In this document: positions 35,230-60,200 of the stretch, one piece after another
Layout of the letters: each line of letters opens with the position of its first letter
How positions within the stretch are numbered: the stretch's first letter is position 1
DNA from: an uncultured Verrucomicrobiota bacterium
GTDB taxonomy: Bacteria; Verrucomicrobiota; Verrucomicrobiia; Limisphaerales; CAIMTB01
Assembly (NCBI GenBank): GCA_964608505.1
Contig: CAZSOV010000005.1
Location: 4,114-68,113, forward strand
Direction: 5' to 3'
Length of the DNA: 64,000 nucleotides
Program-made: the position numbers and the translations under genes
Notes under the pieces: model-generated
Database searches by the model: none
Told to the model about the DNA's origin: nothing
Seen by the model: the letters and a program-made list of their open reading frames with translations, nothing else

Positions 35230-35347
35230 CGCGTCCCGAGCATCCCCCGCGCAGGCGCGGGGATCAACCGCGGCAAGCCGGGGCGTTTCGGAGCCCGAAC
35301 GCGCCGGCGTGGGAAAGGCCTCGCACACGTGGAAAGCGTTCCTTGCA

Positions 35348-38300
35348 TCACCAATCGGTTTCGCGGAACCGGAAGAACGCCGCGCCGCCGGATGGCCACC
35401 GGATCCGCAATCGATGCACCCGGGTGCGGCCCTCGCCATCCCCGGCGACCGCGGTCTCGGAGGCGTCCGCCTCCACGGGCTGCCAATCCCGCAGGTCGGT
35501 GCTCGCTTCAATTCGGAACCGGACGCCGGCGGCGCTGGACCATTCCAGCTCGAACTCGGGGAAGTCGACAGAACCGGCCTCCGGCCCGGGCATGGCCGCC
35601 GGTTTCAGGGCGCGGACGCCGGAGCCCGGGCCGGGCCGGACACCGAGGGGCGTCGAGGGCGGGATCACGTCGGGCGGCGGGCCGGTGACGGTGCCGCCGA
35701 GCACCGGGAAGGCGCGGACGCGGATGTTGCTTCGGCTCTGGCCGTCGAGGCGCCCGCGGTTGACGAGCGTCGCGCCGGCCTCGAGGAAGAGCGTGTCGTC
35801 GACGCGCAGCACGGTGTTCGGGCCGACCTCCAGGCGACCGCGGACACGGACGGAACCTTCGACGTCCTGCCGGAACCCGGACCATTCAAGACTCCCCCCG
35901 GGGCCGGACACGATGGGGAACTCGCCGCGGATGCCGAGGGAGGAGGCGGCAAAGAGGACGTCGAGATCGCCGAAGTCGACGGGCCCGAGCAGGAGGATTT
36001 CGTCGCCGCGATACCAGTGCAGCGTGCCCTCACCGAGGAAGCGCGCGTCGGCGGCGATGGTGTTCGTGGCGCCCTCGAAGCGAGCCTCGGCCCCGTCGGC
36101 CACCGTCCAGGCCCCGGCCAGGGTCACGGGTCCACCGAGGTCGAGACGCCCGCCGAGGATGTCCCAGTTCCCGCTGCCGGAGGATTCGAGATCGAAATCG
36201 GCGACCTCGGCGCCTTCCTTGCGCAGGGTGCCGTCGTTGCGCAGGCGCCCGTAGCCGCCGGACGTCCAGGCGTAGGTGGTATCGTCGAGCGCGAGGAGAC
36301 CGCCGGAGAGGATGCGAAGCGTCCCGTCATCGAAGGTGAGGCGGGCCGAGTTGGTCATGGCGAACGTGCCAGCGATGTCGAGCGTGCCGGCGAGTCGCAT
36401 GCCGTTGAAACCGGAGGCCCTCGCGGTGGCGGTCGCGTCCACGGTCACCGGCCCGGCGCCGGCGACATCGCCCCCGGCCCAGACGAAGGATCGACCGATC
36501 CCGACGCGATCCCCGGCGTTCAGGGTGCCGAAGGTCATCCGCAGATCGCGGAGCCGCGAGGGGCGGAGCAATTCGAGCGTGCCGGCACGGATTTCGGTGA
36601 GACCGAGGTTGGTGAGGCTCTGACCGACGCGCACGTTGCCGCCGGACACGACCAGTGTCCCCTCCGGGGTGAACGCGCCGTCGACGACATGTTCCCCGGA
36701 GTGGAACTCGATGGCGCCCTCGCCGCCGAGGAGGCTGCCGGGAAGGTGGCGGAAGGAATTCTGGAAGTACGCGGTGCCGCCGGACGGCACCCGCAGCTGG
36801 GTCGCGTTGGTCCCGCCGTCGAACCAGATGTCGGTCGCCCCGAGTTCCTGGCGTCCGTGGGCGGCGAACGCGACGCCGCCGAACCGGACGTAGTTGGTCC
36901 CGGCCACAAAGGTGCCCTCGTTGAGGAACAGGTTTGTCGTGGAGTTCCCGGACAGCGTCGTATAGCCGCTGAACCGCACCTCGCCACGGTTGATCCAGCG
37001 CGCCGCGTCGAACGTCACGAACACGAAGGGATCGACCTCGATCCGTCCCTCGTTGGTCAGGTCCACGCCCAACTGAAGACCGCCGCCCCCGATGTGCCCG
37101 ACGAGGTTGGTGCCGAGGAGGAGTCTTCCGCCGCCGGAGAAGGTGCTGCTGCCGAGTTCGAGGGTGCGGTTGACCCGAAGGTCGGCCCGGAGCACCCACT
37201 CCGTGGACTGCACGTCCAGCGCGTCGAGGACATGGGGCACGTCGAGGATGACCTGTCCACCCTGCGACTGGACGGTGCCACCGGGCGGCAGAGGTCGCCG
37301 GACGCGGACCATGGCGCCGCGATTGGCCCAGGCGCCGAGCGGCTCGAAGGCCCCGAGCAGGTCATGCGTGCCCGCGTCAAAGCGGATCTCGCCCGGCCCG
37401 CCGAGGAAGGAACCGGGGGCATAAAGGATGGTCGAAGCCAGTTCGAGCGCGGCGCCGTCCGCCACGCGGAGCTCACCGTCATGGGTGGACTCGGACTGGA
37501 TCTGAAGGGTGCCCTCGCGGACGTCGACCACGCCGCGGTTGTGGAGCACGAGCCACCAGAGGAAGGCGCGGTCCTCGCCGAGTTTGACGAGTGTGCCGGT
37601 ATTTTCGATGACGGCACCGTCGACGGGGAGGGCTCCCGTGAGCGTGACGGCGCCATGCAGCTCGGTGCGTCCGGAAAGAAGCAGCGTCGCGCGCTGGAGA
37701 CGCAGGGTGGCGTTGGTGTCGAAGATCGCGTTGCCCGCCACGCGCGTCGGGCGCTCGAGCACGAGCTGCCGGAAGGGCGGGATCCGCAGTTCGGCCCCCG
37801 CCGGGATGTCGAGCGAGCCCTGCCCGGAGAGGGTGCCGTACTCGGATTCGAGCAGCTTCGTCACGGTGACGGGACCGGGACCGTCGAGTTCGCCGGAGGC
37901 CAGCCGGAGTTGGTTCCAGGTCTGGGCGACGGCATTGGTGACCGAGGTGGAGGCGAGGAGGATGCCGGAGGCAAACTCGAGCGGGGCATCGATCCGTCCG
38001 ACGACACTTTCGAGGGCGAGTTCGCCGACCCCGCGGTTGGTGGAGCCGGGGGCGAATTCGACGGTGCCCGACTGCAGGGTGAGAGGTCCCTGCTCGGCCC
38101 GCAGCAGTCCGGCCTGGCGGAATCGGAACCCGACGATCGGATGCTCGTTGGTGCCGCGCTTCACCCATTCGCCGCGGTTTTCGAGGACGGGCCGACCGAA
38201 CTGGGACCGGATCTGGGCGCGATCCTGAACGACGCGTCCGCCGGCCTCGTTCGTGAATCCCGGCCCGCCGAACAACCAGGTCATGTTGGTGGAGATCAAA

Positions 38301-44300: not shown

Positions 44301-47300
44301 TCGCCGCCCCCGACCCGGGCCCCGGCCGCGGGGGTGCCGTCCCAGCGTCGCACGATTCCCCGCACCACCGCCCGGGGCGGGAAGGCCAGCCCGAGGGATA
44401 CCGTCGTTCCGTCCACGACCAGGAGATTCCGCACCTCGGTCTTCCGCGTGCCATCCGCGGAGACGGCGACGATCTGCCAGTTCCCCACGGGGATGCGCGT
44501 CAACCGGAAGGCGCCGTCGGCATCCGCCTCCGCCGACCCCGCGACCCCCGCGGCCGATTCGCCGGCGATGTGTTCCGCCAGGTACACGCGCGCCCCGGGA
44601 TGCGGTGCCCCTCCTTCCTCCGCGACCCAACCGGTGACCGTGCCCGTCCGTTCCCGCACGTCCGGCACCCGTACTTCCATCGTGGCGGTCGAGCCGGGTT
44701 CCGCCAAGCGCCCGGACACGCGTCGCGCGCGACCGTCCGACGTGGTGGCCTCGAGGCCGAATTCGCCCAGCGGCACGCCCGTGAACCGGAACCCGCCTTC
44801 GTCGTCCGCGAACACGCCGCGTCCGAGCTCCCGCGAATCCAGGGCCGGGAACAGGTTCACCGCCGCGCCCGGCAAAGGCGCGCCGTTCGCCCCGAGCACG
44901 CGACCCTCCACCGTGCCGCGCCCCCGAAACCGCAACACGACGGCCAGTTCGCTGCCCATCCGTCCATCCCCGACCCCGATGTAGTCCGAATAGGTCGCCC
45001 GATCCACGCCTTCCGCCGCCGCGATGGCCGCCCCGATCTCGCCGGCCCTGAACGCGCGCAGCATCGCCTCCCGCACCTGGGCGCCAGCCAGCAACCCGGC
45101 AATGCGCTCCCGGGACTCGGGATCGCCCCCCACCACTTCCTCCAGCACGCCTAGAATCGTCCGCGCGTCCTCGTCGGTCATCCGGGAGGTGTCGATGGCC
45201 GCAATCGTGAAGCCCACGTCGGCGAGGACGAAATCCAGCGCGAAATAGCCCGCGGCATCCGTGAACACTTGACCCGCCCGGTATTCCGCCGGCAGGCAGC
45301 GGTCCCCCACCCGGTCCGACATCGTCAACGTCACCGGCGCGCCCGCGACCGGGTTTCCGTCCAACCCCAGCACCCGCCCCCGCACCGAGGTCCCCTGGCC
45401 GTCCGCCATCAGGACGTCCAGGTCCTGCGGGGACGACAAATGCCCCCGGGGATCCGGGAGCGAAGCCACTTCGAGCCGGTAGGAACGGGGCCGCACCGCG
45501 AAGGAACCCACGCCCCGGTGTAGTTGCAGCAGACACACCCGCCCGCCCTCCTGCAGCTTCACGGTGCGGGCCCCGTTGTCCCCCCCGACCAATCGATAAG
45601 CGCCCGGCGTCTCGACGTCCCCCGGCGCCATGGGCTTGTTGAACAACACCGCCAACACCGTCCCCCAGTTGGCGTACTCCCGGATCGGACAGCGCAGGTA
45701 GGCGCGATCCGACAGGATGGAAATGTCCTGCCGCGCGCTCAGCACCCGCGGCGCTTCCTCCTCGAAGACGGACCTGCGTGGCTCGAAGGGTCCCGCGGGC
45801 GTGCCCTGCACCCTCCGCAACCCGGCGTCCACGCCCGGCCGGAATGCGAACACGTCCCCGACCGACACCGGGCCCGTCGTCCATTGCCAGCGTTCCACCG
45901 TCCCGTTCGTCCGCACCGCGAGGAAGCCGATCTCGCCCCCGCCGCCCGCCGCGGTGGCGGTCCAGCGCAATTCCCGATCCGCGACCGCCGGGCCCGCGTA
46001 CCAGGCCCCGCGGCGGCCCTCGTACACGAGGCCGCGGTCGAGGACGGCTCCGGCAATCCCGGTCGCGTCGTTCGTCGCGTTTGCGGTCGGGACGGAATCA
46101 GGCACGGGCTGAACCGACAGCGCGAATCCGGACTGCGGCGCCGTCGCGAGGTGCCAGGCCTGGCCCAACCCCGCCAGGCTCGGGCCCAGGCCCGCGATCC
46201 GCGCCGCCGCGTCCTCGGTGTCGAGCCCCTCCAGCGCCGCGACGATGGCCTCGCGCCATTCCCGCCCGGCATCCGACTCGCGCAGAATCTGGTCGAACCC
46301 GGGATCGACCCGGCGTCCGCCCTGCCAGTCGAGCAGCAGATCGAAAAGCACGCGGCGCGGGTCGTCGCCGTAGCGCAGGCGCTGGCCGGCCTCGGCCAAC
46401 TCGACGCCGCGGGCCGTGACGACATCGCGGGTCAACGGCCGGATGCGGGCGGGCAGGCGCCCCGCGGTGGCCACGCCCAGGGCCTGGCCCATCACCCGGT
46501 TCGCGGCATCGAACACCTCCTTGGGCAGGGCCTGGACCCAGTCCGGGTACACGAGGGTGTCCGGGCTGAGCGGCACGCCGCGCGAATCGACGCCCAGCGT
46601 CAGGTTCAACCGGCCCGCCACGGCGTCGTCCCCCGTGGTCAGGTTCGAGAAGATCACGCTGCCGGTGCGCTGGGACCGCAGCCGGAACGTCGCGGTCGCG
46701 GATTCGCCGGGGGCGAGGTTGCCCAGTTCCACCGTCTCCTCGCTCAACAGGACGGCGCCGCTGATCGACAGCCGGTTGAGCGTGACGCGTGTCAGGTTCG
46801 CCTCGACCTCGCCCGTGTTGAGGAGCGTGACGCTCGCCTCGTAGGGCTCGCCGACGCGCACGGTGCGCGGATGGGAGAACGTCATCGAGAAGTTCGCGTT
46901 CCGCACCAGGACCGAGCCCACGGCCCGGCCGCGCACCCGCGTCACGCCCGCGGCAAGCCCGTGCAGTTCCGCCTCCAGATCCATCTCGAGCACGTGCAAT
47001 CCCTCGCGCAGGCCCTCGACCAGGAACTCCGCCGCCCCGGTCTCGCCGGGCCGCAGCCGGCTGACGTCGTCCTCCGTGCCCGTCCGGCCATCCGCGCCGG
47101 CCAGCATCACCGGCAGGTTGGTCTGGATGAGGCGGTCGGGCCCGAGCCGCGCCATGCGCAGCGGGTCGTCCCCGGGCTGGTCGTAGGCCCGCGCCGGCAC
47201 GCCGTCCTTGCCCACCGGCAGCCGGATCGTCGCGCGCACCTGGTCGACCGCGAGGTTCGAGCCGGACGGAGCCGCGTTCTCGGTGAACAGCTGCACGCTG

Positions 47301-48217
47301 AAGAACTGGTTGAGGAACCCGATGTTGCCCGGGATCGCCAGGAGCCCCGTGATCGGAATCCCGCCCTTCGGTTCCCCCTCGCCCTCCAGCACCTCCTCGA
47401 AGTGGATCGGGCGCAGGGTGAACTCCGGCATCGCGGCCTGGATCTCGGGAGGCAGCACGACGGAGCGCGCCAGTTCGTCGTTGATCCGCTCCGCCTCCAC
47501 CGTCCGGTCCTCGAGCTCCGCGACCGGGATGATCTCCGTGGCCAGCCGCGCCCGGGGCGCGACCACCGGCATCCGTACCGCGAACGACTTCCCCTGCAAC
47601 ACCAGCGTCACGTCGAACTCGACGACCCGGAAGTTCGTGGCGTCGATGACGATCCCCTTGTCGCGGATCTCCTCGAGCGACAACGGACGACTGGTCACAC
47701 GGGAGACGAGGACCTCGTCGAACACCTTCACCGGAACGCTGGCCGGCGTCGCACGGACCACCGTGCCCCCGGACTGCACCCATTTCACGTCGTCGAGCTG
47801 GTACTCCCCCGCCACCCGCAGCGCGGGCAGCATCAGCGGTCGCCCGGGCTCGCCCACCAGCCGTTGGGCCGGGAACGACGGCCCGCGCAGCGTGGCCTCC
47901 AGCCGGCCTCCCTGGAAACCCGCCGCCGCCGACTCCGCCACCGCCCCGTCCCCGCGCACCACTTCCACCAGCACCGATCCCGGCACGTTGCGCGGCACCG
48001 TGACGACTTCCGGCTGCACCCGCAGCCGGCTCCCGAGCACCCGGTACTCCAGCGTCGTCAGCGGCCCGGGCGCGCCCGGCGCCGCCGGATTCCCGCACAG
48101 CCCCAGCAGCAGCCACAACCAGGCCCGAAGCGGGCCGGGGCCCGCGTTCCGGAACGCGGCGTTCGCGCAACTTCCGCCCGACACCGTGCCGCGGTGGATC
48201 TTCGCTTCTTTCCTCAT
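35348..48217 (-). CDS. Giant secreted repeat protein (4289 aa): unrecognised ~700-aa N-terminal region, carboxypeptidase-regulatory-like and Ig-like (SbsA/Big-type) beta-sandwich arrays, thrombospondin-type-3-like Ca repeats, long parallel beta-helix region, C-terminal FFRF module
   Basis: Signal peptide LRAWLWLLLGLCGNPAAPGAPG. About 20 units of the type GRVLGANGAPLPGAAVNL...DDEGGFRFTGVPLGEF (roughly 41.7-45.4 kb). SbsA-like PRIRSTTPAAGAAGVEPRPRIILGFSEAL. Asp-rich DGDDDGDGLPNAWE...DSDTDGDRVVDG...DPDSDDDGIPDGDD (about 39065-39375). G/T/L-rich beta-helix repeats (about 35.7-38.7 kb). Ends STDLRDWQPV...AAFFRFRETDW. Normal coding composition over 12.9 kb. Confidence 0.9.
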   Translation of the reverse strand: MRKEAKIHRGTVSGGSCANAAFRNAGPGPLRAWLWLLLGLCGNPAAPGAPGPLTTLEYRVLGSRLRVQPEVVTVPRNVPGSVLVEVVRGDGAVAESAAAGFQGGRLEATLRGPSFPAQRLVGEPGRPLMLPALRVAGEYQLDDVKWVQSGGTVVRATPASVPVKVFDEVLVSRVTSRPLSLEEIRDKGIVIDATNFRVVEFDVTLVLQGKSFAVRMPVVAPRARLATEIIPVAELEDRTVEAERINDELARSVVLPPEIQAAMPEFTLRPIHFEEVLEGEGEPKGGIPITGLLAIPGNIGFLNQFFSVQLFTENAAPSGSNLAVDQVRATIRLPVGKDGVPARAYDQPGDDPLRMARLGPDRLIQTNLPVMLAGADGRTGTEDDVSRLRPGETGAAEFLVEGLREGLHVLEMDLEAELHGLAAGVTRVRGRAVGSVLVRNANFSMTFSHPRTVRVGEPYEASVTLLNTGEVEANLTRVTLNRLSISGAVLLSEETVELGNLAPGESATATFRLRSQRTGSVIFSNLTTGDDAVAGRLNLTLGVDSRGVPLSPDTLVYPDWVQALPKEVFDAANRVMGQALGVATAGRLPARIRPLTRDVVTARGVELAEAGQRLRYGDDPRRVLFDLLLDWQGGRRVDPGFDQILRESDAGREWREAIVAALEGLDTEDAAARIAGLGPSLAGLGQAWHLATAPQSGFALSVQPVPDSVPTANATNDATGIAGAVLDRGLVYEGRRGAWYAGPAVADRELRWTATAAGGGGEIGFLAVRTNGTVERWQWTTGPVSVGDVFAFRPGVDAGLRRVQGTPAGPFEPRRSVFEEEAPRVLSARQDISILSDRAYLRCPIREYANWGTVLAVLFNKPMAPGDVETPGAYRLVGGDNGARTVKLQEGGRVCLLQLHRGVGSFAVRPRSYRLEVASLPDPRGHLSSPQDLDVLMADGQGTSVRGRVLGLDGNPVAGAPVTLTMSDRVGDRCLPAEYRAGQVFTDAAGYFALDFVLADVGFTIAAIDTSRMTDEDARTILGVLEEVVGGDPESRERIAGLLAGAQVREAMLRAFRAGEIGAAIAAAEGVDRATYSDYIGVGDGRMGSELAVVLRFRGRGTVEGRVLGANGAPLPGAAVNLFPALDSRELGRGVFADDEGGFRFTGVPLGEFGLEATTSDGRARRVSGRLAEPGSTATMEVRVPDVRERTGTVTGWVAEEGGAPHPGARVYLAEHIAGESAAGVAGSAEADADGAFRLTRIPVGNWQIVAVSADGTRKTEVRNLLVVDGTTVSLGLAFPPRAVVRGIVRRWDGTPAAGARVGGGDRVVTTDAQGRFELTGVPVGVGNILAGLDGPDTSDGVTRTATVQIVVKPGLNDLVELRLPARGRIRGVVYDGTGVTRVPRVRVAIPVTAGFLWVDANANGEYEFNGLGLGGYTISAPAPPVKKKADELAAEALEAIGSAAGGGDADAAAALVGELANLYAQGSMGRLTTTPFVPANWGFTSATLDFDGQTVVHDIRYLPSGRLSGTVVNPQGVPVGAQVSVSAVGPSKSGGAGVVELGPFLSDPSTGEWSASGFIVGPFTVTAKSPLLVGQAQVEGVLRADAPTRTNVVLRFPSQTDVTGRLTGLVLNPDGSPVTNGAVHISFTSDYVIGVDDQGRFDTQIRLPALDYSVLATNLVTGLVGASSVRIVGGITNFTTVRLLDRGAVRVRVLRADGRPATNAVVTLTRSSFPESTGEQAVTDDEGRATVEGLWQGEWMLRAEALEGATRATALDGVRVAPRDVVERTVTLGASGTISGVFLEEGTGRPIPGAQVFARSGSGNGVLIATAPTGADGNFAIPGVPLGSYHLTARNPTDGRVAVQTARLATANERVRVTLVEEPLGDVEGFVTAADGPGVSGVEVNYADGRGLTPPRTVTTGPAGDFRFQGVPRGEFALTATDPVAGGYASARGTFVAGESRVRVDLALPGWGTVEVRVLEPDGTTPAAGVPVRARGGREGMVTDTDAAGLATFERLDLGSILIETLPRGVGQGVNVAATNVTLRVAGEVVRTTVRLPGSGRVTGTVRSAGGALVGNALVVVESLDPGFGETTRRTLTEADGTFVLDAVRLGALTVRAVSGALAAFGGGTLAAPNATALVDLRLGGSGSVRGRIEDEDGNELRAVEVGFFFTAQNGQAGFVRALADGLGAFEAQGLPVATPIEVRIAVPALDGRRTVVARIAANGEVVDLGRLRLDQQAPRIRSTTPAAGAAGVEPRPRIILGFSEALRPESIRAAGIVLRGAGREEALDLALEDGPEGPATVLAALPRTNLASATSYTLVISGADDVDASGRPVSRGPEDLERRPLARTELLSFTVRDYLPPVTLLAFPGPEAAEVEPMAGLRWEFDEPIRTNRIDVALWAGTVRVDGAAGLNPNGRVLAWVPARPLLPDTAYRVELRGVEDLSGNVALPTTNRFSTLDTRGPRVAVLRLREGQRPVANATVMVEALLESSETDAVVRWSRNGTELGVATDGPVYSFAVRLPAEGSVRLLATGVDRAGNPGEAAVLELRVGPNERPVVELMRVEPPSGPLETGRRFGFAVLARDDATVAAVRVELRGAVTATRELFLPPNGVATNLVFDFPSAALAGGTVEVQATAYDDSGAASDLARLTYATRDATPPRMTPELPLDRAELDPREPLRVVATLSDNSRRLRWNVAATGTVIFERRFDFDVEPNVPRREELPISLADGLRGGNVVLNLTASDDAGNEVRTSRSYRLRSVVGPRLARIAAADLGYVWVAPHDEPISPWSTLYVDFDASLDARRCDTNLLEILSADGRSLPRRVTISGTSVAVQPTGPALPPGTEVRLRLLPGWVGLDGNAVNLADGAAWPAEGRSETFRVADVQGLSVANGVPAVPGQTLEIDVRHHSVFGGWQLAVNGVAANVYTFPADGTRFRVVVPTNAPSVRLLARSVRSGRTEFVLPEVALDLRSRDGDDDGDGLPNAWEADRSFVHGLRRFDPFLAADASEDFDFDRLPNRAEFLAGTDPFDSDTDGDRVVDGDEPGTGGCPSPLDPDSDDDGIPDGDDLAPCAAGEALVLAPASMTVGEGESVTNAVTATATGLTLVSLDFAPDLPRPAFVGFADFWHTGTNPIVRRVLLRPSFQDAGTHVVTFQVTARRAFSLITSNIAIPVVVEDRANSRFTRWARPVDGDWANRTNWTAGVPGIGTNAVIDLPGTYAVRLSGNVFVESLTVGGAGSGIQTLRLSGGSLGINGPSTVPATGLLLLEGGATLQGQGRLDVAGTLRLSTANVSGPGSVHVQPTGRLEVVGSALGGTARFEAPLINLGSVLISTNMTWLFGGPGFTNEAGGRVVQDRAQIRSQFGRPVLENRGEWVKRGTNEHPIVGFRFRQAGLLRAEQGPLTLQSGTVEFAPGSTNRGVGELALESVVGRIDAPLEFASGILLASTSVTNAVAQTWNQLRLASGELDGPGPVTVTKLLESEYGTLSGQGSLDIPAGAELRIPPFRQLVLERPTRVAGNAIFDTNATLRLQRATLLLSGRTELHGAVTLTGALPVDGAVIENTGTLVKLGEDRAFLWWLVLHNRGVVDVREGTLQIQSESTHDGELRVADGAALELASTILYAPGSFLGGPGEIRFDAGTHDLLGAFEPLGAWANRGAMVRVRRPLPPGGTVQSQGGQVILDVPHVLDALDVQSTEWVLRADLRVNRTLELGSSTFSGGGRLLLGTNLVGHIGGGGLQLGVDLTNEGRIEVDPFVFVTFDAARWINRGEVRFSGYTTLSGNSTTNLFLNEGTFVAGTNYVRFGGVAFAAHGRQELGATDIWFDGGTNATQLRVPSGGTAYFQNSFRHLPGSLLGGEGAIEFHSGEHVVDGAFTPEGTLVVSGGNVRVGQSLTNLGLTEIRAGTLELLRPSRLRDLRMTFGTLNAGDRVGIGRSFVWAGGDVAGAGPVTVDATATARASGFNGMRLAGTLDIAGTFAMTNSARLTFDDGTLRILSGGLLALDDTTYAWTSGGYGRLRNDGTLRKEGAEVADFDLESSGSGNWDILGGRLDLGGPVTLAGAWTVADGAEARFEGATNTIAADARFLGEGTLHWYRGDEILLLGPVDFGDLDVLFAASSLGIRGEFPIVSGPGGSLEWSGFRQDVEGSVRVRGRLEVGPNTVLRVDDTLFLEAGATLVNRGRLDGQSRSNIRVRAFPVLGGTVTGPPPDVIPPSTPLGVRPGPGSGVRALKPAAMPGPEAGSVDFPEFELEWSSAAGVRFRIEASTDLRDWQPVEADASETAVAGDGEGRTRVHRLRIRWPSGGAAFFRFRETDW

Positions 48218-51200
48218 CGGAACAGGTCCTTTCCGGTGCCAATCAGTTCACCCAGCCGGCGGGCCAGGTCCGGATTCTCGGTCGCGATCCGGCGCAACAG
48301 CACGTCCTCGACCTCGAGATTCAGAAACATGGGACGCGACATGCCCGCCTTCTCGAACGACCGGATGGCCCGGTCGGCGACCTCGTGGATCAACTCCCGC
48401 CGCAGCACGTCCGTGGCCCGGAACGTGCCCTCGGCCTTGCTCCCGGTGGCGGCGATGTCCGCCCCGTTCTGGGCCGCCGCCACCAGGTCGTCGTGCACCA
48501 GGATGATCTTGTCGTAGAGGATCCGGGCCGGATTCGCCGCCGACAGCGGCTTGCCCAGCCGCAGCGACTCGGCGTGCCCGATCACGCCCACACCGATGTC
48601 CTGCAACCGGTGCATGGCCGAGCCCATGAGGCGCTCGGGGAGGTCGAGGATCTTCGCCACGTCGGGAAGGGCCTTGGCCGCCACCAGCTCCGCCTGGCTC
48701 ATGACCTTCGTCACGGGATCGAAGAGATGGGTCAGGATCGGACCGTCGAACCGCACCCGGGGCACGACCTCGGTCAACACCTCGTCCGACCGCAGCGTGC
48801 GCCCGATCCAGGTGTCCGCGATCCCGGTCACCGCCCCCAGCCGGCTCGCGTCGTCCACGAGCCCCGCCGGCGACAGCAACGCCCGCGCCGCCTCGGCCCG
48901 GTCCGCGGAACCGCTCACCACCGACTGAATGGCCGTGCGCGCCTCCCGGACGCGCGAGGCACGGGCGACGTTCGCGAGCGCGCCGCCGACGGTCCCGCCG
49001 ATCTGCATCACGTCCGCGCCGGCGGCGAGATAGTCCCAGCCGGAGGGTGCCACGCCGGTGGTGTCCTCGACGGCGAGTTTGCCGCTGAGGGTGCCGAGGC
49101 CGGAGCCGACGTTGAGGGCGCCGCCGACGTACTGGCCCACGGCCTTGACGACGCCCGCGGCCACGGCCTGGGCCCAGCCGGGGTCGTCGCCCGCCGTCGC
49201 CACCATGTCCGCCAGTTGATCCGTGAAGTACTGCAGTTTGTCGCCCGAACCGCCCGTCGCCACGAGGGCTTCGAGCTGCTTGACCTTCGCCATGCTCGCC
49301 CGCGCCTCGGCCTGGCCACGCTCGACGCTCCATTCCAGGTAGGCCTCGTTGTATTTGTCCGCCCGATCCAGGCTCTGTTCGAGCTCCCGAATCGCCTGGG
49401 CCGCTGCTTCCTTCGCCTCCTTGCGCGCCTCGGCGATGACCTTCCGGTCCGACCACCAGGGCACGTAATGCTCGCCCGTCTCCGAATCGATGACGGTGTT
49501 GCGCAGCGACGGATCGACGTCCTTGTCGCTCCTGCCCTTCTTCGTCCCCGTATCCTCCCGGATCGAGTCGTCCCCGCCCCCGCCCCCACCCTTGCCGCCG
49601 CCCGCGTCGGCCTTCTCGTTCGCGTACCCGGTCGGGTCCACCCACGCCAGGGGATTGCCGAACGCGTACAGGTACCGATGCAGGCTCGCCGGGGTCCCGG
49701 CCTCGCCCGGGAACGCGTCCTGGCCGAGGAACCGCCCCTGCTCGTCGTCGTAATATCGTGCCCCGAAATAGTGCAGTCCGGTTTCCGCGTCCCGATAGTG
49801 CCCCGTGAACTGGCGTTCGTTGGCGACCGTCGACGCGCTGGCGGTCAGTCGTCCCCAGGCATCGTACCGGTACTCCGCCTCGCGCGCTCCCGACGCGGCG
49901 GTGAGGTGCACCGTGCTGCCCAGCGCGTCGGTCAGGTAGAAATGCCGGTCCAGGCCCGCGGCTCCTGCCGCCCGCGGCGTGCCCATCGCCAGCAGGCTGC
50001 CCCCCTGGTCGTACGTGCGCAGCGTCACGTGTCCCGCCGCCGCCGGACCGTACTCCAGCGCCACCGCCGCCTGATCGTAGAGATACCGCGTCTCCCCGGC
50101 GGCGGAGATCTTCTTCACCCGCATCCGGTCGGCCCCGTAGTCGAAGCGCGTCCAGGCTTCGGCCTCGCCGGTTTCGATCATCCGGTCCCGGATGTCGTGC
50201 CGGAACCGGCGCGCGATCCCGTCCTGTTCCCGAGAGACCTGGTTCAGGTTGGAGTCGTACCGGTACGTGATGGTTCGCGCCGCCGACAAGAGATCCTCGA
50301 TGCGCGTCAGGGCGTTCATGCCGTCGAAGGTTCCCGTCACGCCCGGCAACGCGCCGTACCGGAACACCCGATCCATCGGTTGGCCGGTCACGAAGTCGGT
50401 GCCGCGTTCCGTCAGGCGATTGCCGTTCGGCGCGTAGGTGTATCGCACACTGGCTCCGGCCCCGTTCGTCACCGCCGTCAACCGGTTCAGACCGTCGTAC
50501 CCGTACCGCGTGGTCTCCGGCACCGGGCCCAGGCCCGGGTTGAACTCCACCTGTTCCAGGCGGTTTCCGTTCGCGTCGTAGCGGTACCCGAACGAGGACA
50601 ACACCGTGCCACCTCCGGCCGCGGCGTTGGTGATCGAGAGGAGGCGGTCCGCCGCGTCGTAGGCCCGGGACGCGGACACGCCGCCCGGATAGTCCACGCG
50701 CCGCAACAGGCCGTCGGTTTCCCACCCGTATCCCACGGTCAGGGCGCCCGCACCCGTGCCTGCATCGAGGGTCACGGTCTCCAGCCGGTTGCGGTCGTCG
50801 TAGGCATACCGCGTCACCCGGCCGTCGGCGTCCGTCGATTCCGTCCGGTTGCCCGCGACGTCGTACCGGAAGCCCAACCGGCGGCCCGCCACGTCGTCGT
50901 GGTCGTGCCGCGTCCGTTCCATCAACCGGTCCAGCGCGTCGAACGCCTGGACGGTCCGTTCGGTGACCGCCGCCGCCCCCAGTTGCTTGGTTTCGCGAAT
51001 CTCGAGTTCGTTCCCGTTCCCGTCCCGCACCCACTCGATCCGCAGGGGCTGGAACTCCGCCGGATTCCCCGCCGTCCGCTCGGCGTGGCCCGTGTAGATC
51101 CGTTGCACCACGCGGTTCAGGTGGTCGTGGGAGGTTTCGATCCGCTGGCCGCGGGGGTCGACCAGCAGCGCGGGGTTGCCGTTGCCGTCGTACCCGTAGG

Positions 51201-54200
51201 TCCAGCGGAAGGCCGTCGCCGCGTTCCCCCCGGGTCCGGCACCCCGGTTTGCCGTCGCGCCGAGCGTGCCCGGCGCCGCGTGCTGGAGCACGGCCGTCAT
51301 CCGGTTCAAGCCGTCGAACTCCCGCGTCACGAGGTTGCCGTCGGGATCCTGCTGCGCCACCCGGTTGCGGGTCGCGTCGTACCGGAACCGGGTCACGCCG
51401 GCGTCCGCCGCGGTGCCGCGTGCCGACTCGTCCACCGCCAGCAGGGCGTTCAACTCGTCGTACTCGTAGCGGGTTCGGCCACCGCGCGGATCGATCCGTT
51501 CCACCACGTTGTTCGCGGCGTCGTAATGCTGGCGCGTCGTTTCCCCGAGCGCGTTGGAGGTCGCGATGCGCCGGTTCCGCGCGTCGTACTCGTGGCGCAC
51601 GTCGTGTGCCGCCCCGTGCGCGCGCGGGTCCTTGGCCGAGACGACGTTCCCCACGGCGTCGAACTCGAACCGCGTCGTGGCCGCCACCGCCGTTCCCGCG
51701 CCCTCGGTCGACGCCGTCCGCCGGTCCGCGGCGTCGTACTCGTGCGTCACCACCCGCCCGTCGCCGTCCTCCGTGCGCACCAGGTTCGAGTTCCCGTCGT
51801 ACTCGGTCCGCGACAGACGCAACGGATCCGCCCCGTACCGCGCCGCGAGGTTGCCCCCGCTCCGCCACACGCCGGTCTCCCGCCCCAGCGCGTCGACCTC
51901 CACCACGGTGGTCCGGCCATTGCGATCCGTCATCTCCCGCCGCCGGGCGGAGTCCCGGTAGACGTTGGTGATCGAGCTCCGCTCCACCCCCGCCGCGTCG
52001 AACTCCCGCACCACGAGCGGACGATTCAACCCGTCGTACACCGTCGTCGTCCGCTGCCCCCGTCCGTCCACGCGCACCGTCGGGTTCACCCCGTCGTAGG
52101 TCGTCGACAACGTCCGGCCCACGGGATCCCGCACCGACCGGGGCCGCCCGAGGCCATCGAACTCGATCCGCGCCCGGTTTCGGGCGGCGTCGTACGTGTC
52201 CTGCGCGTTCGCGGCGTCGTCGTACACGGTTTCCGCCAGCACCAGCCATGCCCCGTTCCCGCTCACGGACTCCCGCAGTTCCTGGGTTCGGGGCCGGCCG
52301 AGATTGTCGAAGGTGGCCCGGTGCTCGAAGCCGCGGCGATCCCGGCGCCACACGGCCTGGCCCGCGCCATCGTACGCCAGTTCCTCCGTCACCGGGCGGC
52401 CCTGGTCGTCGGGGGTCGCGACCCAGCGCGTCGACAACCGCCGCCCCAACTCGTCGTAGGCATGGACGAGGTCCACGTCGCCGTTCCGGGCGTCCACGAC
52501 TTCCAGCACGTTGCCCGCGGCGTCGTGCGTCATCCGGTTGGTGAGGTCGAGCACGCCCTCCGCCACGACCTGTTCCACCAGCCGGTCCAGGCCATCCTTC
52601 CGCACGCGCGAGGCGAAGCCGCGGGCGTTGGTGACCCGGATCTCGTTGCGCGCGTCGTCGTACCGCGTCCGCGTCACGTAACCCGGCACGCCGGGCCCGT
52701 TCAACACCGCCAGCGTCGGGCGCCCGATGCGGTCGAACGCGTTCGTGGTGACCAGACCCGAGGCATGATCGTGCTGGAGCGTCCGGTTGCCCGCCGCGTC
52801 GTACCCGAACTCGGTGGCGTTGCCCTCGGGATCGGTCCGCCGCACGAGCCGATGCAGGCGATCGTACTGGAACCCGGTGGCCCGTCCGTTGGCATCGGTC
52901 GACCGGAGGACGTTCCCGATCCGGTCGCGGCGGGTCTCGAGCCTCGCACCCGCGACGGGCAGATGGTGGGCCGACTGCCGGTGGAAACCGTCGTACTCGT
53001 AGCGGTTCGTCAGCCCGTGCCGGTTGATCTCGGACAGGGTGTTGTTCACGCGGTCGAACGTGACCGCGGAAACCAGTCCCCCCCCTGCGCCCGGCCCGCC
53101 ATGCGGTCCCGACACGACCGTCCGCTCGCGGCGGCTCAGGGCGTCGTAGGCGTGGGTGCGCGTCACGCCCCGTGCGTCCGTTTCGCGAAGGACGTTCCCG
53201 ACCACGTCGTGCTGCCACGAATTCGTGTAGCTGACCCGAGAACCGTCGACCTGGCGGACGTCCCGCTGCACCGAGCGCACGCGCCGGCCCAGGGCGTCGT
53301 ACTCGTGGGCCGTGACCAGACCAAGGGCGTTGGTCTGGAACCGCACCAACCCGCCCGCCAGATAGCTCGTCCCCGTCCGGGCGTCGGGCCCGCCGCCCAG
53401 CCCGCTGAGGTCGTTCAACCGGACTTCCGAGATGACCCGATCCAGGCCGTCGTACTCGATGCGGCGGTGATGGGTGAACGTGTCCCGGGACTCGCGCAGG
53501 CGGCTTCGTTCGTCGTACGTCTGCTCGACCTGGTTGCCCTCGGGATCCACCACCACCTCGGCATTCCCGTACGCATCGTAACGGGTGAACCGTGTCTCGT
53601 GCCCGCGCGGGTCCCGGCGCACCCGGACGTCCCCGCCCGGTTGGTACTCGAACGTCGTGACGTTCCCCGCCGCGTCCTCGCTCCGCACGAGGTTCCCCGT
53701 CGCGTCGTCCACCGCGAACGTCGTGGTGCTGCCTTCCGCGTCGACGACCGACAGCGGGACGTTGAACACGGGATGATAAACCTGGACCAGTTCCGACGTC
53801 GTCGTCGCCGCCCCGGTTCTGTCGAACACCGGCGTCTTTCCGGGTGCCACGCGCGTCGTCTCCCGCGTCACGTTGCCCCGACCGTCGTGATACTCGAACC
53901 GGGTCTCCAACCCCTCCGCGTCGACCTTCCGCGTCAACAGGACGTCCCGGACCGGTTGACCGGCCTCGTCCCGCACCGAGCCGTCCAGGTGATCCGTCGC
54001 CCACTCCATCGTCGTCGTCTGACCGAGCGGCGCCTCGATGCGCAGGGTCGCGCCATAGGCATTGAGGACATAGACCGTGTCCGGGACGCCCGCCGCGGCC
54101 CGCGGGTCCGACACCCGCCGCGTGCCGCCCGCGAAATCGTAGGTGAACCGCGTCACGGCATCGGCGGCGGCCTCGAACCCGGGCCGCGCCGCGCCCACGC

Positions 54201-57200
54201 GCGTCACCGTACGCACCATCTCGTGCGGCGGCACGCCGTCCAGCACGCCGGCCAGCGCATAGTACCCCGCGGCGCCCGTCGGAAAATACTCGTACCGGGT
54301 GACCATGCCGTTCGGATCGGTCCACTCGACCAGGTTGTGCGCGTTCGGTCCGCCTTGCTCGGGGGTGTACACGTATCGGTCGGTGCGGGTCTCTGCCGCC
54401 GACGCCCCGACCCGCGTGACGTTCGTGAGATGACCGACGTCGTCGTAGGCGTACCGGATTTCGAGACCCAACAGATCGGGACTGCCCTGCCGGTTGAACC
54501 CGCGCAGGGCCACCATCCGGTCCGCGCCCGCGATCCTCCGGTACTCGAACCGGAACCCGCGCTTGGGCAGGCCCGTCGGGTCGAACTCGGTCACCGTGTC
54601 GAGCGTCTCGCGGTTGGCATCCCCGTCCTCGTACGCCAGGCGCAGCTCGTTCCCGTTGGGTTCGCGGACGGACTGCAACGGGAAGACGCGTCCGGACGAG
54701 GTGCCGCGGGAGCCGTCGACGAGGAAGTGGTAACGCACGGCGGATTTCGTGAAGTACCACGCCTCCGCCGGGCGTCCGGTGTCCCGCGCCAGCACGGAGT
54801 GGTAACCGACCTGGGCGCGGAAGAACTCCCAGCGCCCGCTGGCCGCGGGCAGGAAGCGCGCGTAACGCGCCTCGCGGACGGGGTCGGGGACGGGATCGAC
54901 GAACGCGTGTCCGGTTCCCTCGCCGCCGACCACGGTGAACACGCCGCAACGTTCCTCGAGACGTATGTGATGGTTGTGGGTCCAACCCGCGCCGAGCGGT
55001 CCCGCCGAACCGTTGCCACTGCTCGAGTACGTGCGCGAGAAGTCGAGGGCCAGCTTCCGGCCCGGCACCGCCACGTCCTGGCGCGCGTGGGTCAGGTGCC
55101 CGTCCCACAGGTCCACGCCCTGGATCACCGCGTGGCCGATGGGGAAGGAGTGGTTCATCTCCACCTCGTGCTCGATCATCCCGGACACCGTCAGCGTCCG
55201 GTCCGGAGCCAATCCCGCGAACCGCGTGCCGACCGCTTCCACCGGGAACTCGCCGGCGCGCGGCAGATGCGCCGCGTCCACCAGCACCCGGTGCGAACCC
55301 GCCGTGAACGCGACGTTGGTGAAGACCGGAATGGAACGTCCCAGTTCGTCCAGCCCGCCGGTCAACGGACGCCCGTCCAGGAGGATCGTGATCTCGGCGT
55401 CCGGGTTCACCTCGAACTCGAGCCACGCGCTTCCCGGGCACGCGCGCTGGTTGACCCGGTCCACCGTGGTCCGCACCACGACCGGCGTTTCCAGGTTCAA
55501 CGACGGCGACAGGACGGACACGGGGCGGGCGACGCTCGCGCCCAGTCGCACCGGGGCCGCGTTGGGCGGCGGGTTCGCGACCAGGGTGCCCAGGCCCGAA
55601 AAGGGCCCGAGCACCGGGTTCGGGGCCATGCTCTCCGGGATGCCCACGCGCACCCGGCTGCCCGCCCGCAGAACCACCTGGACCCCGCGCGCGGGTTGCA
55701 GGTCCGCCGCTCCGGACGCGTCGTCCGCCAGCGACAACGGTCCCGACACGTAGGCGTTGAACGCCGGGGACAGGGCGTCGTGGCTCAACCGGTGCAGCAC
55801 CACCGCATCGTCGAACGACGCGAGCAGCGAGTTCGTCCCGGCCGCCAGCGTGCCGTCCGGTCCCAGGCTCATGACCGCCAGCCGGATCGTGCTCCCGGCA
55901 CCGCCGGGCGCCTCCACCATCACGTGCCAGCGGAATGCCGGGTCCGTCGCGGGCAACGCCGCGTTCGTGCCCTGCCCGATGACCGGAAGTTGCGGCGGCT
56001 CGACCAGGGCCCGCAGCGCGGCGAAGCGCTCCTCGGGATCGATCACGGCCATCGCCTCCGCCGTCGCGCGGCCCGCGGGCAGCAGCCGCACCCAGGGCGC
56101 GCTCTGGCTCACGACGTTCAGGTTGCGCAGGCTGGCCGCGGTCACGCCGCTGCCCAGCACCGCGAACGGCGTCACCCCCGCGCCCGCCCCCGAGATGCGG
56201 CCCAGGATCGCCGGGTGCACCCCGGACGCCCCGACGGGCGCGAGCAGTTTCGCGACGTCCAGGAACACCAGGTCCATGCCCGACGGGCGCGCGAGGGAAA
56301 GCGCGACGCGACCGCGGTCATCCAGCTCGGCGCCCTGCAACAGACCGTACTCCGAGACGGGCAACGGAATCTCGCCCGCTTCCACGAGGAAGTCCGGGCG
56401 CGACGCGTCGATGATGCGCAGCGAATTGGTCGCGTTGTCCGCGCTGATGAGGTTCACGAGGACCAACCGCCGCAACGCCGAGGGCACCGGGAGCAGGCGC
56501 TTCGGGTACCATCCGGGGAACTCAAGCACGTAGCCGTTCGGGATGGCTGGTGGCAGCGCGGTGTCGGGCGATGCCCCTCCGATCACGTAGGCCCGCAGCG
56601 CCGCCGGACGGTTCCAGGTGTTCGTCCGCACCGGGCGCCAGTCCACTTCCATCACCTGATCGATCCCGGAGGTGGTCAGCAGCAGGGCCAGGGAGCCCGC
56701 CCCGTCCGCCACGGCGTCGGTGATGTACCGCCCCGAGCGCACGAGATGATACGCCCCCGCGTCGGTGGTCCGGTTCGGCGCCAGCGACAACACGGCCTCC
56801 TCGCCCACCACGAGTTCCAGCGTGTCCTGTCCCTGCACCGGCAATGCCTCGCCCGCGTCGACGAAGTCGCCGTCGAGGTTCAGGTCCCGTCCCGGCTGGT
56901 ACCGCGGTGGCAGGGTGTCGAGCACGTCCCGGGGCACCTCCCGATAGGCGTCACCGAGCAGGAGGGATTGGAGGTTGAGCACGTGGACCTGCGGCGCGAA
57001 CGCCGAGTTCTCGGTGAGCAGCAGGTAGGGAGCCGACCACGAGAGCCGCGTGAGCAGCGCCGTCTCGTCCATGCTGATCGGGCCCCCGGCCACGTGAGGC
57101 GCGACCGCGAAGTTCTCGCCGAGTTCGTAGACCCGGATGTAGCCCCAGGCCGCCCCCTGGGTCTGGCCCGCGACGACGATCAGGTCCCCGCGCTTCACGG

Positions 57201-60200
57201 CGCCCGGTCTCGAACCCGGCACCCCGGGTTGCTCGAAGGCGAGGGTGTATTGGTAATCGGGCACCAGCACCATCGCCCGTGCCGGACCCGGCAGCGCTCG
57301 GGCATCGAGCCGCACCGGGCGCGCCGGAATCGAGACGTCGTACCGGTTCAACGTCTGTTCCCTCCGATCCAGAACGTACGCGTACGCCCCCCGCACCGCC
57401 ACGCCGCCGCCCTCGGTCACGCCGGACAAGGCCCCCAGCACCGCCGGCGCCGTCCGGAACCGCAGCACGAACGGCTCGTTCGTCGGTGCCGACGTCGTCG
57501 GGTCCTGATCCAGATATTGTCCCGTCAAATCCTGCACCCCCGCCACGTTCAACACGTACTCGCGGCCGTTCTCGAGCGCGGGAAATCGCAAGGTGACCTC
57601 CCTCGGGTCCGCGAGCATCGACGCCTGCACCGGACCGCCCGCCGGACTCAGCGTCACGTATTGCGACGGGTTGCGCGCCAGGTCCGGACTCACCCATTCG
57701 CTGAACCGCAGCCGGAATTCCGCCAGCGGATCCACGCCCATCGCGCCTTCGTCCGGCTGGGAGTACAGCACGCGCGGCCCGAGCGGATCGTTGACCGGGG
57801 CCAGCGGCGCCGGCGGGTCCCCCACCCGCACCACGTGCAGCGTCTCCCCGGAATTGCCGAACGCATCCGTCGCCCGCGCCCGCAGCACGACCTTGGCCTT
57901 CGCGTTCGCGGTCACCTCCCACGCCCCCGGCAATCCCGCCACCAACGTCACCAACGCCGTCGCCGGTTCCACCGATTCCACCGTCAACGTCGAGCTCGCC
58001 GGCCCGCTCTCGTCCACCGCCTCCACCCGCACCCCGACCCGGTCGCCCGGCGCCGGTTGCACCGGACGATGCAGCACCGTGATCGACGGCGGCGTCGTGT
58101 CCGGGGTCGCCTCCCGGTTGAACCGGATCTTGCCGCCGCCGAACGGGTGGATGGGATCGAACCGCGTGCCCGCCGAGCTCGTCGCGAATTGCCGGGGAAA
58201 CGACGGATGCGTCGCCGTCAGGACGTGCCCCTGCCCCGGGCTTCCCTGCCCCGTCTGCTCCGGCACGAGAAACGCGAATCTTCCGTCCCCGCCGCTGGTC
58301 ACCACCAGTTCCCCGCCCTGCAGGCTGAACGGTCGCGAGTTCAACGCCGACAACGCCCGCGCCCGCACCACCGCTCCGCCCAGCGGCACGTCGGTGTCCG
58401 GATCAGCGTCCAGGCCGCCGCGGAACAACGCCGACGTGGTCTGCCCGATCAGCTCCGTGTTCGAGTAGTACACGTTGCCCACGAGCATCACCCGCGCCGC
58501 CGCCGGATCGACGAAGGCGTAGAAGCCCGCAAACAACGCCGCCGGCTCCCGCCGCCCCGCCAACGCCAACGACAGGGCCCGCGCCGCCCCACCCGCACCC
58601 GCACCCGCCGGTGTCAGCACCGACAAATACTCGTACACCGGCACCGTCCGCTCTGCCCCGTCCGCGAATTCCGTGATCTCGCGGAACGCCGTCGCCATGA
58701 GCGTCAGGTCGTCCAGCGTCCGCCCCGGCGGCGGCACCCACCGGCCCGGCTCCGGACGTACCTCAATCCGGACCTTCCCCTGCACCGCATCCCCCTCCAC
58801 CGCCAGATCGAACCCGCCGAACAACGTCGCGTCCTCCGGTGCCGTGCCCTGCGTCGCCGCACCCAGCTCCTCCGCGCGCAGCGGCGTCAGCCGGAAGCGC
58901 GTCCGCCCCAACACCGCCCCCGCCGGCACGTCCAACACGATCTGGAGATCGTCGTTCCGGTTGGTCACCCGCCCGCCCTCGCTGAACAACGCCACGCTCC
59001 CGTCCGGGAACAACTGGCGCCCCACCGGATACGTCGACCGCGTGCCGTCCGGATGCACGAGGACCACGCTCAACCGATCCCCCTCGTCCGCCGCCAGGCG
59101 CTGCGCGAAACTCCCGTCCGGCTCCGTGAAACCCGACGAGGTCCGACCGGTCGTCCCGTTCACGAACAGGATCGGCTGGCGCGGCAGGCCCATGCCCGGA
59201 CTTCCCCGCACCCACGCCTCCCCGTTCGCATCCGGCGCCTCGCTGACCAGTTGCGCCCCCGCCGCCCGCTCGAACTTCCGCGCCACCGTCGTGAACCCGA
59301 ACTCCCGCGCGCCGATCAACCGGTTCCCGCGCGCGTCCTCCACCGTCGCCCCCACCCGCACGACGTGCGCCGTCGCCTCGGCCAGTTCGTTCGACGCGAT
59401 CAACCGCGCGACCCGGCCCTCGTCCTCCCACTCCAACCGCGCCGGCACCGCGTTGGAACGCGCGTCCAGCAGTTCCACCCCGGGTCCGCCGCCCCCCACC
59501 CGCACCGCCTTGCTGAACCGGACCACGACCGGCGTCAGCAAGCCCACGTCCACCGCCCCCGCCGCCGGAACGACCTCCGCCACGAACGGAGCCGCCGCCG
59601 CCGTCGTCATTGCCACCGCCTCCGCCACCCGCGTGGCCGGCATCGTGAACGCGCGGCTCGCCGCCTCGCCCGTCACCGGATCCCGCGTCACCAGCATCCC
59701 GTCCCCCACCCCAGCGACCAATCGAAAGCCTCCCGCCGCGTCCGTCCGCGCGCCCCACGGCGTCCCCGCCACCCGCACCTCCGCGCCGCGCACCGCCGCC
59801 CCTGCCGCGTCCCGCAACGTCCCGGCCACGATCCCCACCCCCGAGGTCACCCGCACCAGCACGTACTGCCCGGAACGATCCACGCCCGACAACGCCGCCG
59901 CACCGTCCGTCGTCGACTCCGACACCGTGCCCCCGCCGACGGTCCACGCCGCGACCGGTTCCAGTCCGGTCTCCGCGCCCTCGTACCAGCGCCGGGCCAG
60001 CACGTAGTTCCCGTCCTGCGGCGCCGGATCGAAGCGCACGCGCCACCGGTCGCCCGGACCGCCCATGCCCGCCGCCAGCGCGAACGCCGCGACCCCGTCG
60101 CCCAAGGACGCCGCATTGGTTTCGAACCCCACCTCCACCGCGCGGCCCGGCTGATTCGCCGGCCCCTCCGTCGACACCACCAGGCCCGACACCTTCAGAT

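Follow-up and report, generated by a model that had tools for sequence, protein, structure and literature searches.

Rhs toxins, like other polymorphic toxins, are seen as pairs of a toxin and its immunity protein, delivered by type VI (T6SS) or type VII (T7SS) secretion systems, by contact-dependent growth inhibition (CDI) or through anchoring to the cell wall. In the 64-kb stretch of an uncultured Verrucomicrobiota bacterium considered here (contig CAZSOV010000005.1; hereafter the window, by which the whole stretch is meant), an RHS/YD-repeat protein of ~4,517 aa carries behind its Rhs core a tail of 469 aa (48217-49623, minus strand; 49.4 kDa, isoelectric point 5.3), and the next gene encodes a giant protein instead of a small immunity protein. 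What is this tail, and how can the locus do without an adjacent immunity gene? Our answer, to which we would give roughly even chances, is that the tail is a genuine RHS payload, in which a membrane-insertion module is combined with a separate effector domain, and that it belongs to an operon family which is independent of the T6SS and has no adjacent immunity genes.

Anatomy and relatives of the tail

The sequence-only reading of this DNA had set the tail directly behind ...NPLAWVDPTGY, and the minus-strand translation of positions 48214-49800 confirms the placement, giving ...RYLYAFGNPLAWVDPTGY and then ANEKADAGGGKGGGGGGDD...; the KEAKEAAAQAIRELEQSLDRADKYNEAYLEW stretch, both Gly-rich segments, the C-terminal strings and the end ...GKDLFR before the stop codon are all reproduced as they had been quoted. 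The boundary is also that of the NCBIfam model TIGR03696 (Rhs_assc_core), whose match stops exactly at DPTGY (49624-49638). The core sequence ends ...GRFLGQDAF...NPLAWVDPTGY and contains both expected catalytic Asp residues, and its motif appears intact and competent for cleavage, the final residue of PxxxxDPxG(L) being Tyr here where Leu is usual.

An exhaustive phmmer search of 1.84 billion representatives returned four matches to the tail (P0001-P0004); a word-indexed search of 5.8 billion clusters returned one protein with the whole tail (P0001) and P0003 alone with a profile of the glycine-zipper module described below. P0001 and P0002 represent one lineage, in which the entire tail is present at 73-74% identity on an RHS protein of 4,514 aa, and when one genome per GTDB species was scanned, this lineage turned up in the Verrucomicrobia metagenome-assembled genome UWPOB_VERRUCO2 (locus L003, 72%). 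P0003 (E=1.3e-5) and P0004 (E=9e-5) align to tail residues ~100-226 only, that is, to the end of a charged helix and the two Gly-zipper helices, and their alignments stand at z=14-17 above composition-preserving shuffles. Past the zipper module P0004 continues for ~200 aa unrelated to the C-terminus of the window tail, with a further gene 4 nt downstream. Because both proteins match the tail only in this region, and the C-terminus of P0004 differs, we see the zipper as a separable module, one that also stands in the N-terminal part of other polymorphic-toxin tails. A similarity between the C-terminus of P0004 and the tail of another locus, L004, was suspected and was not supported by BLASTP. 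As regards orphan copies of the tail, a search for which had been proposed, the 64-kb window holds no further copy.

The tail is coding and under purifying selection: the GC content at third codon positions (GC3) is 0.90-0.95 in its reading frame, and the ratio of nonsynonymous to synonymous substitutions (dN/dS) over the whole tail is 0.15 for the window and P0002; for the closely related loci L001-L003, compared with one another, it is 0.06-0.13. The Nei-Gojobori values for the window/P0002 pair are approximate, dS being saturated, and they vary along the protein, from 0.53 in the N-terminal half to 0.20 in the shell (33-50% and 59-73% identity, respectively) and, within the tail (Table 1), from 0.17 in residues 20-125 to 0.054 in the zipper module and 0.055 in the connector at residues 236-300. 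The C-terminal ~170 aa evolve faster (0.30). Identity follows the same course, with 83% in the zipper block, the maximum among 150-residue windows of the whole protein, and 63% in the 150-residue window after it, which covers most of the C-terminal domain.

The charged helix is predicted at tail residues 60-121 (H in the DSSP assignment of a low-confidence AlphaFold2 model). The two zipper helices lie at about residues 148-182 and 196-220, hold few charges and reach maxima of 1.18 and 1.14 on a 19-residue Kyte-Doolittle scale (KD19); they contain the motifs GQYVG, GSGLG, GTLSG, GGTVG and GTVGG, with (G/A/S)xxx(G/A/S)xxx(G/A/S) runs at residues 145-181 and 209-217. Helices of this composition are probably amphipathic or insertion-competent rather than classically transmembrane. 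The earlier proposal of a membrane-active payload thus remains plausible, the zipper helices being the best-conserved block (83%, dN/dS ~0.05), and is narrowed here to a separable module.

Neither the whole tail, its C-terminal half nor the profile of the zipper module matched anything above noise in Pfam, NCBIfam, PHROG or the PDB sequences, and the statement that the tail bears no recognisable toxin signature holds for these four libraries. Pre-toxin domains, of which PT-TG is an example, are known from polymorphic toxin systems (Zhang et al. 2012, PMC3482391); searched with the pre-toxin models of Pfam, the tail, P0003 and P0004 gave only noise at E<=10, and the zipper module seems to behave like a pre-toxin domain though it is none of those listed in Pfam. 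Matches of the tail to EncM and CCDC34 (E 0.06-0.2) were discarded as composition noise. The C-terminal domain holds a conserved L(I/L)HE(V/I)(A/G)(D/E)RAIR helix, which is not HExxH; the model suggests a zincin-like topology (beta-beta-beta-helix) in which the helix bears a conserved HE, but this may be taken as a hint only, the motif being HExx(D/E).

The junction and the search for an immunity gene

The junction reads ccgATGAgg, the ATG of the giant gene overlapping the TGA of the RHS gene, in agreement with the ATGA overlap and the 4,289-aa next reading frame that had been described. Equally well founded was the claim that no room is left for an immunity gene: by codon-position GC a single frame is coding on each side of the junction, the RHS frame having a GC3 of 0.89-0.95 as far down as 48.4 kb and the giant frame one of 0.84-0.95 from 47.8 kb on. 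Two open reading frames (ORFs) across the junction, 46098..48242 (minus) and 45524..48517 (plus), were considered as immunity genes and rejected, their codon-position GC being non-coding. The giant gene is followed by a response regulator and a histidine kinase (Table 1), neither of which looks like an immunity protein.

Upstream of the RHS gene lies the gene of a secreted, beta-rich protein of ~400 aa without a Pfam family. It is conserved in L002 (33% identity), where its counterpart (L002 3502-4710) overlaps the RHS start by 4 nt, and it is therefore a third member of the operon. As an immunity protein it is disfavoured: it is only 33% identical between the window and L002, against 73% for the tails, and so keeps pace with the N-terminal half, which evolves fast, and not with the tail. 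The protein has repeated '...SS..GP(Y/F)A....RFFR(L/I)' units, and a 'FFRFR' motif at the C-terminus of the giant was suspected to match this protein, without significance. In the gap between this gene and the RHS start (61812-62025) sit three direct repeats of ~55 nt, with the core TTGGAACTTTGAGCTTTGATCTTGGAGCTTC and a spacing of 75-84 nt; they look like tandem regulator-binding sites, and the gene of an OmpR-type regulator stands at the 3' end of the operon.

An operon family with exchangeable tails

The first ~450 aa of the giant (window 46868-48217, minus) belong to no Pfam family and bear the motifs VIPGNIGFLNQFFSVQLFTEN, GDDPLRFAR and AEFLVEGLxEGLH. Homologs of this domain at E<=1e-33 number 79; they come from at least six phyla (Verrucomicrobiota, Myxococcota, Acidobacteriota, Chloroflexota, Planctomycetota and Proteobacteria), and almost all lie on truncated contigs. 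The analysis covered the contexts of eight giant homologs and five RHS–giant loci, the tail of the window being present in two independent lineages. L001, L002 and L003 have the same tail as the window and the same 4-nt overlap into the giant. An identical arrangement was found in L004 (RHS protein >4,025 aa), in L005, where an RHS-like C-terminus belongs to a gene cut by the contig end, and in L011 (GCA_003576805.1, QEVM01000057.1; RHS protein 4,101 aa). In L006 and L008-L010 the giant has no detectable RHS gene upstream. L007 (400-9962) encodes a homolog of the non-RHS N-terminal half only; between it and a giant homolog lie two small genes, the first for 121 aa, with a signal peptide, and the second for 150 aa. 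Judging by this locus, the giant surface proteins form a conserved pair, and the RHS cage with its tail looks like an extension that may or may not be added at the C-terminal side.

The RHS cores of L004, L005 and L011 can be aligned, while their tails (309, 375 and 301 aa, respectively) are related neither to each other nor to that of the window, which makes four mutually unrelated tails of 301-469 aa across the family if L001-L003 are counted with the window. The N-terminus of the giant is 48-54% identical to that of the window in L004, L005 and L011, and 60% in L003. In the L011 tail the final 137 aa match TreX (PDB 8s2m_B, E=6e-8), with the Arg, STT and ExE elements of an R-S-E ADP-ribosyltransferase (ART) aligned; TreX, whose target for ADP-ribosylation is FtsZ, is neutralised by TriX, the product of the gene directly after it (PMC11606950). 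In this region (L011 8001-10004) the RHS gene with the ART tail is followed, again by a 4-nt overlap, by the giant and not by an immunity gene. The tails at this position of the family are therefore polymorphic, and at least one of them is, by homology, a recognisable toxin, which indicates that tails at this position can be real toxins. None of the RHS–giant loci inspected (L001, L002, L004, L005 and L011) has an adjacent immunity candidate, and the operons in which an RHS gene runs by a 4-nt overlap into a giant constitute a family whose lack of adjacent immunity genes is a family trait and no accident of one locus.

How the payload may act and which readings compete

If the tail is such a payload, the RHS/YD-cage protein would be exported by the Sec route, independently of the T6SS, and the aspartyl protease of the Rhs core would cut after DPTGY, leaving the payload inside, or attached to, a shell of ~1,830 aa. 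The zipper helices might then insert into a target membrane and either depolarise it by themselves or bring the C-terminal domain across, the α/β domain of ~170 aa being the putative effector. Both variants have precedents: Tse5-CT is a Rhs-encapsulated glycine-zipper pore former (PMC9637101, PMC10684867), and the N-terminal glycine zipper of Tde1 permeabilises the membrane and lets the C-terminal DNase enter (PMC10240207). In our tail the zipper module (residues ~126-235) is more likely an insertion or translocation element ahead of the effector than the whole toxin.

Several results weigh against this interpretation. To no part of the tail could a toxin fold or a catalytic motif be assigned by family, PDB, AlphaFold2 or Foldseek searches. 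The AlphaFold2 models reached a predicted local distance difference test score (pLDDT) of 41.5 for the whole tail (3-sequence alignment), too poor for a fold search, and of 49.5 for residues 280-469 (2-sequence alignment); compared with the PDB by Foldseek, the latter model, itself of poor confidence, gave no match (best E=2). Beside the tail there is no immunity gene, and in the rest of the 64-kb window none could be recognised. Between its two carrier lineages the tail is not hypervariable (73% identity), the hydrophobicity of the zipper helices is under the classical transmembrane threshold, and the sharing of the module rests on two metagenomic fragments. Size is a further difficulty. At protein density the 49-kDa tail occupies ~60,000 Å^3; T6SS shells of the Tse5 type (~1,120 aa) enclose a cavity of ~32,000 Å^3 and toxins of 16 kDa (PMC10684867), and a bacterial teneurin-like shell encloses ~44,000 Å^3, with C-terminal domains of ~15 kDa (bioRxiv 10.1101/2025.11.11.687626). 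From the DUF6531 plug to DPTGY the shell of the window protein counts ~1,831 aa, and full encapsulation is doubtful because no more than ~67,000 Å^3 results even when the cavity is scaled up, crudely, by N^1.5 for this length. The cage would then have to be as large as that of a Tc toxin and nearly full, or part of the tail would lie outside.

It is possible, if unlikely, that the zipper module is itself the toxin, a depolarising pore comparable to Tse5-CT or to an ionophore, and that the C-terminal ~170 aa serve in targeting, receptor binding or regulation. The zipper block is after all the most constrained part of the protein, GxxxG helices of similarly moderate hydrophobicity form pores in Tse5, Tse4, EsxX and CdzC/D (PMC9637101, PMC10240207, PMC12744356), the CDI ionophores likewise consist of two domains, an entry domain and a helical bundle (PMC11630599), and the searches disclosed no catalytic motif in the C-terminal domain. 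A toxic module, however, is normally variable and co-evolves with its immunity protein, whereas this one is conserved and shared by tails with other C-termini; moreover, it has no sequence similarity to solved or Pfam pore-formers, and no small membrane immunity protein was found around the junction or in the window. Somewhat less probable still, in our view, is that the tail is a Rhs toxin of the ordinary interbacterial sort and that its cognate immunity gene is not adjacent but lies elsewhere in the genome, or is that of a conserved operon partner such as the upstream ~400-aa protein. The homology of the L011 tail to an antibacterial, FtsZ-targeting ART that needs immunity in Xenorhabdus (PMC11606950) would fit this explanation, as would the conservation of the upstream gene and its overlap with the RHS start in L002; against it stand the mere 33% identity of the upstream protein between lineages with 73%-identical tails, the lack of an immunity-like gene flanking the operon in the window, and the fact that five of the five loci lack an adjacent candidate.

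A third possibility, which seems to us improbable, is a tail that is not toxic and serves in structure or interaction, holding the RHS cage to the giant or to the cell surface; metazoan teneurins, with their extra-shell C-terminal domains, offer a loose parallel. The appeal of this reading lies in the conserved translational coupling with the giant, in the tail being well conserved, and not hypervariable, in the two lineages that have it, in a size that is probably too large for full encapsulation, and in the failure to find a toxin signature; but the N-terminal domain of the giant is 48-60% identical across loci with wholly unrelated tails, a bona fide ART toxin domain occupies the same position in one member of the family, and the cleavage motif of the Rhs core is intact. 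The specific suggestion of the sequence-only reading that the tail might be an interaction module for the downstream giant is disfavoured for the same reason: tails swap against a conserved giant N-terminus, being unrelated in L004, L005 and L011 and TreX-like in one of these.

The RHS–giant family, which spans several phyla, departs from two rules, in that its tails measure 33-50 kDa, against a supposed cage limit of ~15 kDa, and that no immunity gene follows them. If our interpretation is right, it implies a hitherto undescribed route for the delivery or presentation of Rhs cages in the Planctomycetes-Verrucomicrobia-Chlamydiae (PVC) group, Myxococcota and Acidobacteriota, and a different answer to the problem of self-protection. 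The tail would add to the catalogue of toxin domains a conserved glycine-zipper 'pre-toxin' module and an effector-like domain found in one other lineage only among ~15 billion proteins. A bolder proposal, which we put forward as speculation and consider rather doubtful, is that the RHS protein, the coupled giant of >4,000 aa and the upstream ~400-aa protein form an undescribed Sec-dependent system of toxin presentation across phyla (Verrucomicrobiota, Myxococcota, Acidobacteriota, Proteobacteria), with payloads of 33-50 kDa and no cognate immunity, either because non-kin cells or eukaryotes are the targets or because the giant blocks self-delivery.

The RHS gene and other features of the window

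The RHS gene was recorded in the list of open reading frames as 48214..63219 (minus; 5,001 aa), an entry over-extended at its 5' end, because codon-position GC, by which the RHS frame is coding from ~61.6 kb downward only, puts the start near 61767-61779. Translation and DNA of this region offer an ATG at 61767 or a GTG at 61779, and the choice between them is uncertain. The ~480 extra codons (61780-63219, minus) are a Gly/Arg-rich read-through of the intergenic region and of a gene in another frame. The N-terminus of the RHS protein is hydrophobic and signal-like, and its ortholog P0002 has a clear Sec-type signal peptide. Big_5 and CarboxypepD_reg (transthyretin-like) domains follow, and these are the only Pfam families in the N-terminal 2,406 aa; then comes the RHS cage, with 15 stretches of RHS_repeat (PF05593, E=9.3e-95) upstream of the core. 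The role of DUF6531 as a plug of the shell is taken from the Tse5 structure (PMC10684867). Best PDB sequence matches of the RHS protein are T6SS Rhs structures, with E down to 1.6e-27, and not teneurins. In the giant, Pfam identifies CarboxypepD_reg eight times, Big_5 twice and others in its beta-sandwich arrays.

Table 1. Coordinates of the RHS operon and of the segments of the tail in the window
Feature	Position	Strand	Basis or remarks
OmpR-type response regulator and HAMP/HisKA histidine kinase	32919..35511	minus	Pfam; directly downstream of the giant
Downstream giant gene, 4,289 aa	35348..48217	minus	signal-peptide-like N-terminus, ~450-aa domain, beta-sandwich arrays
ATGA stop/start overlap, RHS gene to giant	48214..48217	minus	DNA sequence
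RHS/YD-repeat giant protein gene	48214..61767	minus	ORF list, GC3 frame plot, start-region translation, Pfam
Tail residues 301-469: alpha/beta C-terminal domain, candidate effector	48217..48723	minus	dN/dS, AlphaFold2, family searches
Tail residues 236-300: conserved connector (ARASRVREARTAIQS...VPRVRFDGPIL)	48724..48918	minus	P0001 alignment
Tail residues 126-235: helical glycine-zipper module, two helices	48919..49248	minus	KD19, GxxxG, conservation, P0003/P0004 homology
Tail residues 20-125: conserved RNTVIDSxTGEHYVPWWSDR segment, then long charged helix	49249..49566	minus	P0001 alignment
Tail residues 1-19: Gly/Lys-rich linker ANEKADAGGGKGGGGGGDD	49567..49623	minus	translation
RHS repeat-associated core (aspartyl autoprotease plug)	49627..49866	minus	TIGR03696, E=1.6e-21, residues 451-530 of a 1000-aa piece
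DUF6531, N-terminal plug of the RHS shell	54901..55116	minus	Pfam PF20148, E=6.5e-13
Upstream secreted ~400-aa beta-rich protein gene	62010..63200 (start approximate)	minus	33% identity to L002 counterpart

Among the other genes of the window, those with PSCyt1/PSCyt2/PSD1 and DUF1501 domains are of a kind usual in the PVC group. An IS200-like Y1 transposase domain (PF01797, E=2e-12 and 7e-11) stands at the N-terminus of two ORFs (3724-4806, minus, 361 aa; 19077-20195, plus, 373 aa), both of them far longer than the canonical IS200 TnpA. An 810-aa protein (24860-27289, minus) with multihaem cytochrome c motifs (Cytochrome_C7, paired CXXCH), PKD and Big_9 may function in extracellular electron transfer.

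Comparison with known systems

The window protein shares with Rhs/YD polymorphic toxins the repeats, the plug, the core motif and tails that are polymorphic among homologous proteins; a cognate immunity gene directly downstream of the tail was found neither at the junction nor at the related loci. Of the T6SS no PAAR, VgrG or other gene was found by Pfam in the RHS N-terminus or among the genes of the window.

In Tc toxins, TcB-TcC form an RHS cocoon of ~1,800-2,100 aa around a payload of ~30 kDa or more, the hypervariable region; their targets are eukaryotic, no immunity gene is known for them, and giant partners are encoded in the same operon. The locus studied here resembles them in its large RHS cocoon, large payload, lack of an immunity gene and co-operonic giant partner. 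It differs in that neither the RHS protein nor the giant has TcA-type, SpvB or TcdB_toxin_midN domains by Pfam, and in that the giant, which has a signal peptide, is not a TcA pore-former but is built of arrayed beta-sandwiches of the Ig-like and transthyretin-like kinds.

Tse5 of Pseudomonas aeruginosa (PA2684) has in common with our protein the Rhs shell, the DUF6531 plug, the DPxG site of aspartyl autoproteolysis and a helical, moderately hydrophobic, Gly-rich C-terminal fragment proposed to enter membranes (PMC9637101, PMC10684867). Tse5-CT, however, has 149 aa (16 kDa), is delivered by PAAR and the T6SS and is accompanied by the immunity gene tsi5, whereas the tail of the window is three times larger, has an extra globular domain and no immunity gene, and shows no detected sequence similarity. 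Tandem GxxxG and small-xxx-small motifs on moderately hydrophobic helices are present, as a class of motif and not as a homologous family: searches of PDB, Pfam and PHROG gave no homology to the characterised glycine-zipper pore formers Tse5-CT, Tse4, EsxX-CT and CdzC/D. Tde1 of Agrobacterium tumefaciens is alike in its bipartite logic, an N-terminal glycine zipper being followed by a separate toxin domain (PMC10240207); it is a small T6SS effector with an Ntox15 DNase domain and the immunity protein Tdi1, and is not a Rhs protein. TreX of Xenorhabdus bovienii (PMC11606950) is a Rhs ART toxin homologous to the tail of L011, yet it has no homology to the tail of the window, is delivered by the T6SS and has its immunity protein TriX encoded directly downstream.

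The closest published class is that of the bacterial teneurin-like proteins (TLPs), defined by hidden Markov models (HMMs) as an FN-plug, NHL and YD-shell superfold and reported from Myxococcota, Acidobacteriota and Pseudomonadota, Verrucomicrobiota not being listed (bioRxiv 10.1101/2025.11.11.687626). With Pfam, and not with the HMMs of that preprint, no NHL or TEN_YD-shell match was obtained in the window protein at E<=0.01; TEN_YD-shell (PF25023) was recorded for the ortholog P0002 and at a weak or faint level in L004 and L011. TLPs differ from our protein in C-terminal domains that average ~15 kDa, against the 49-kDa tail here, and in the small immunity gene that directly follows almost all of them, where the window has the 4,289-aa giant. 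The likeness is nonetheless extensive: Sec-type export independent of the T6SS, BIG and transthyretin-like N-terminal domains, a plug, a YD shell and the cleavage motif of the Rhs core are common to both, the C-terminal domains of TLPs are likewise polymorphic, some of them being membrane-active or ARTs, and the phyla in which TLPs occur also contain homologs of the giant partner.

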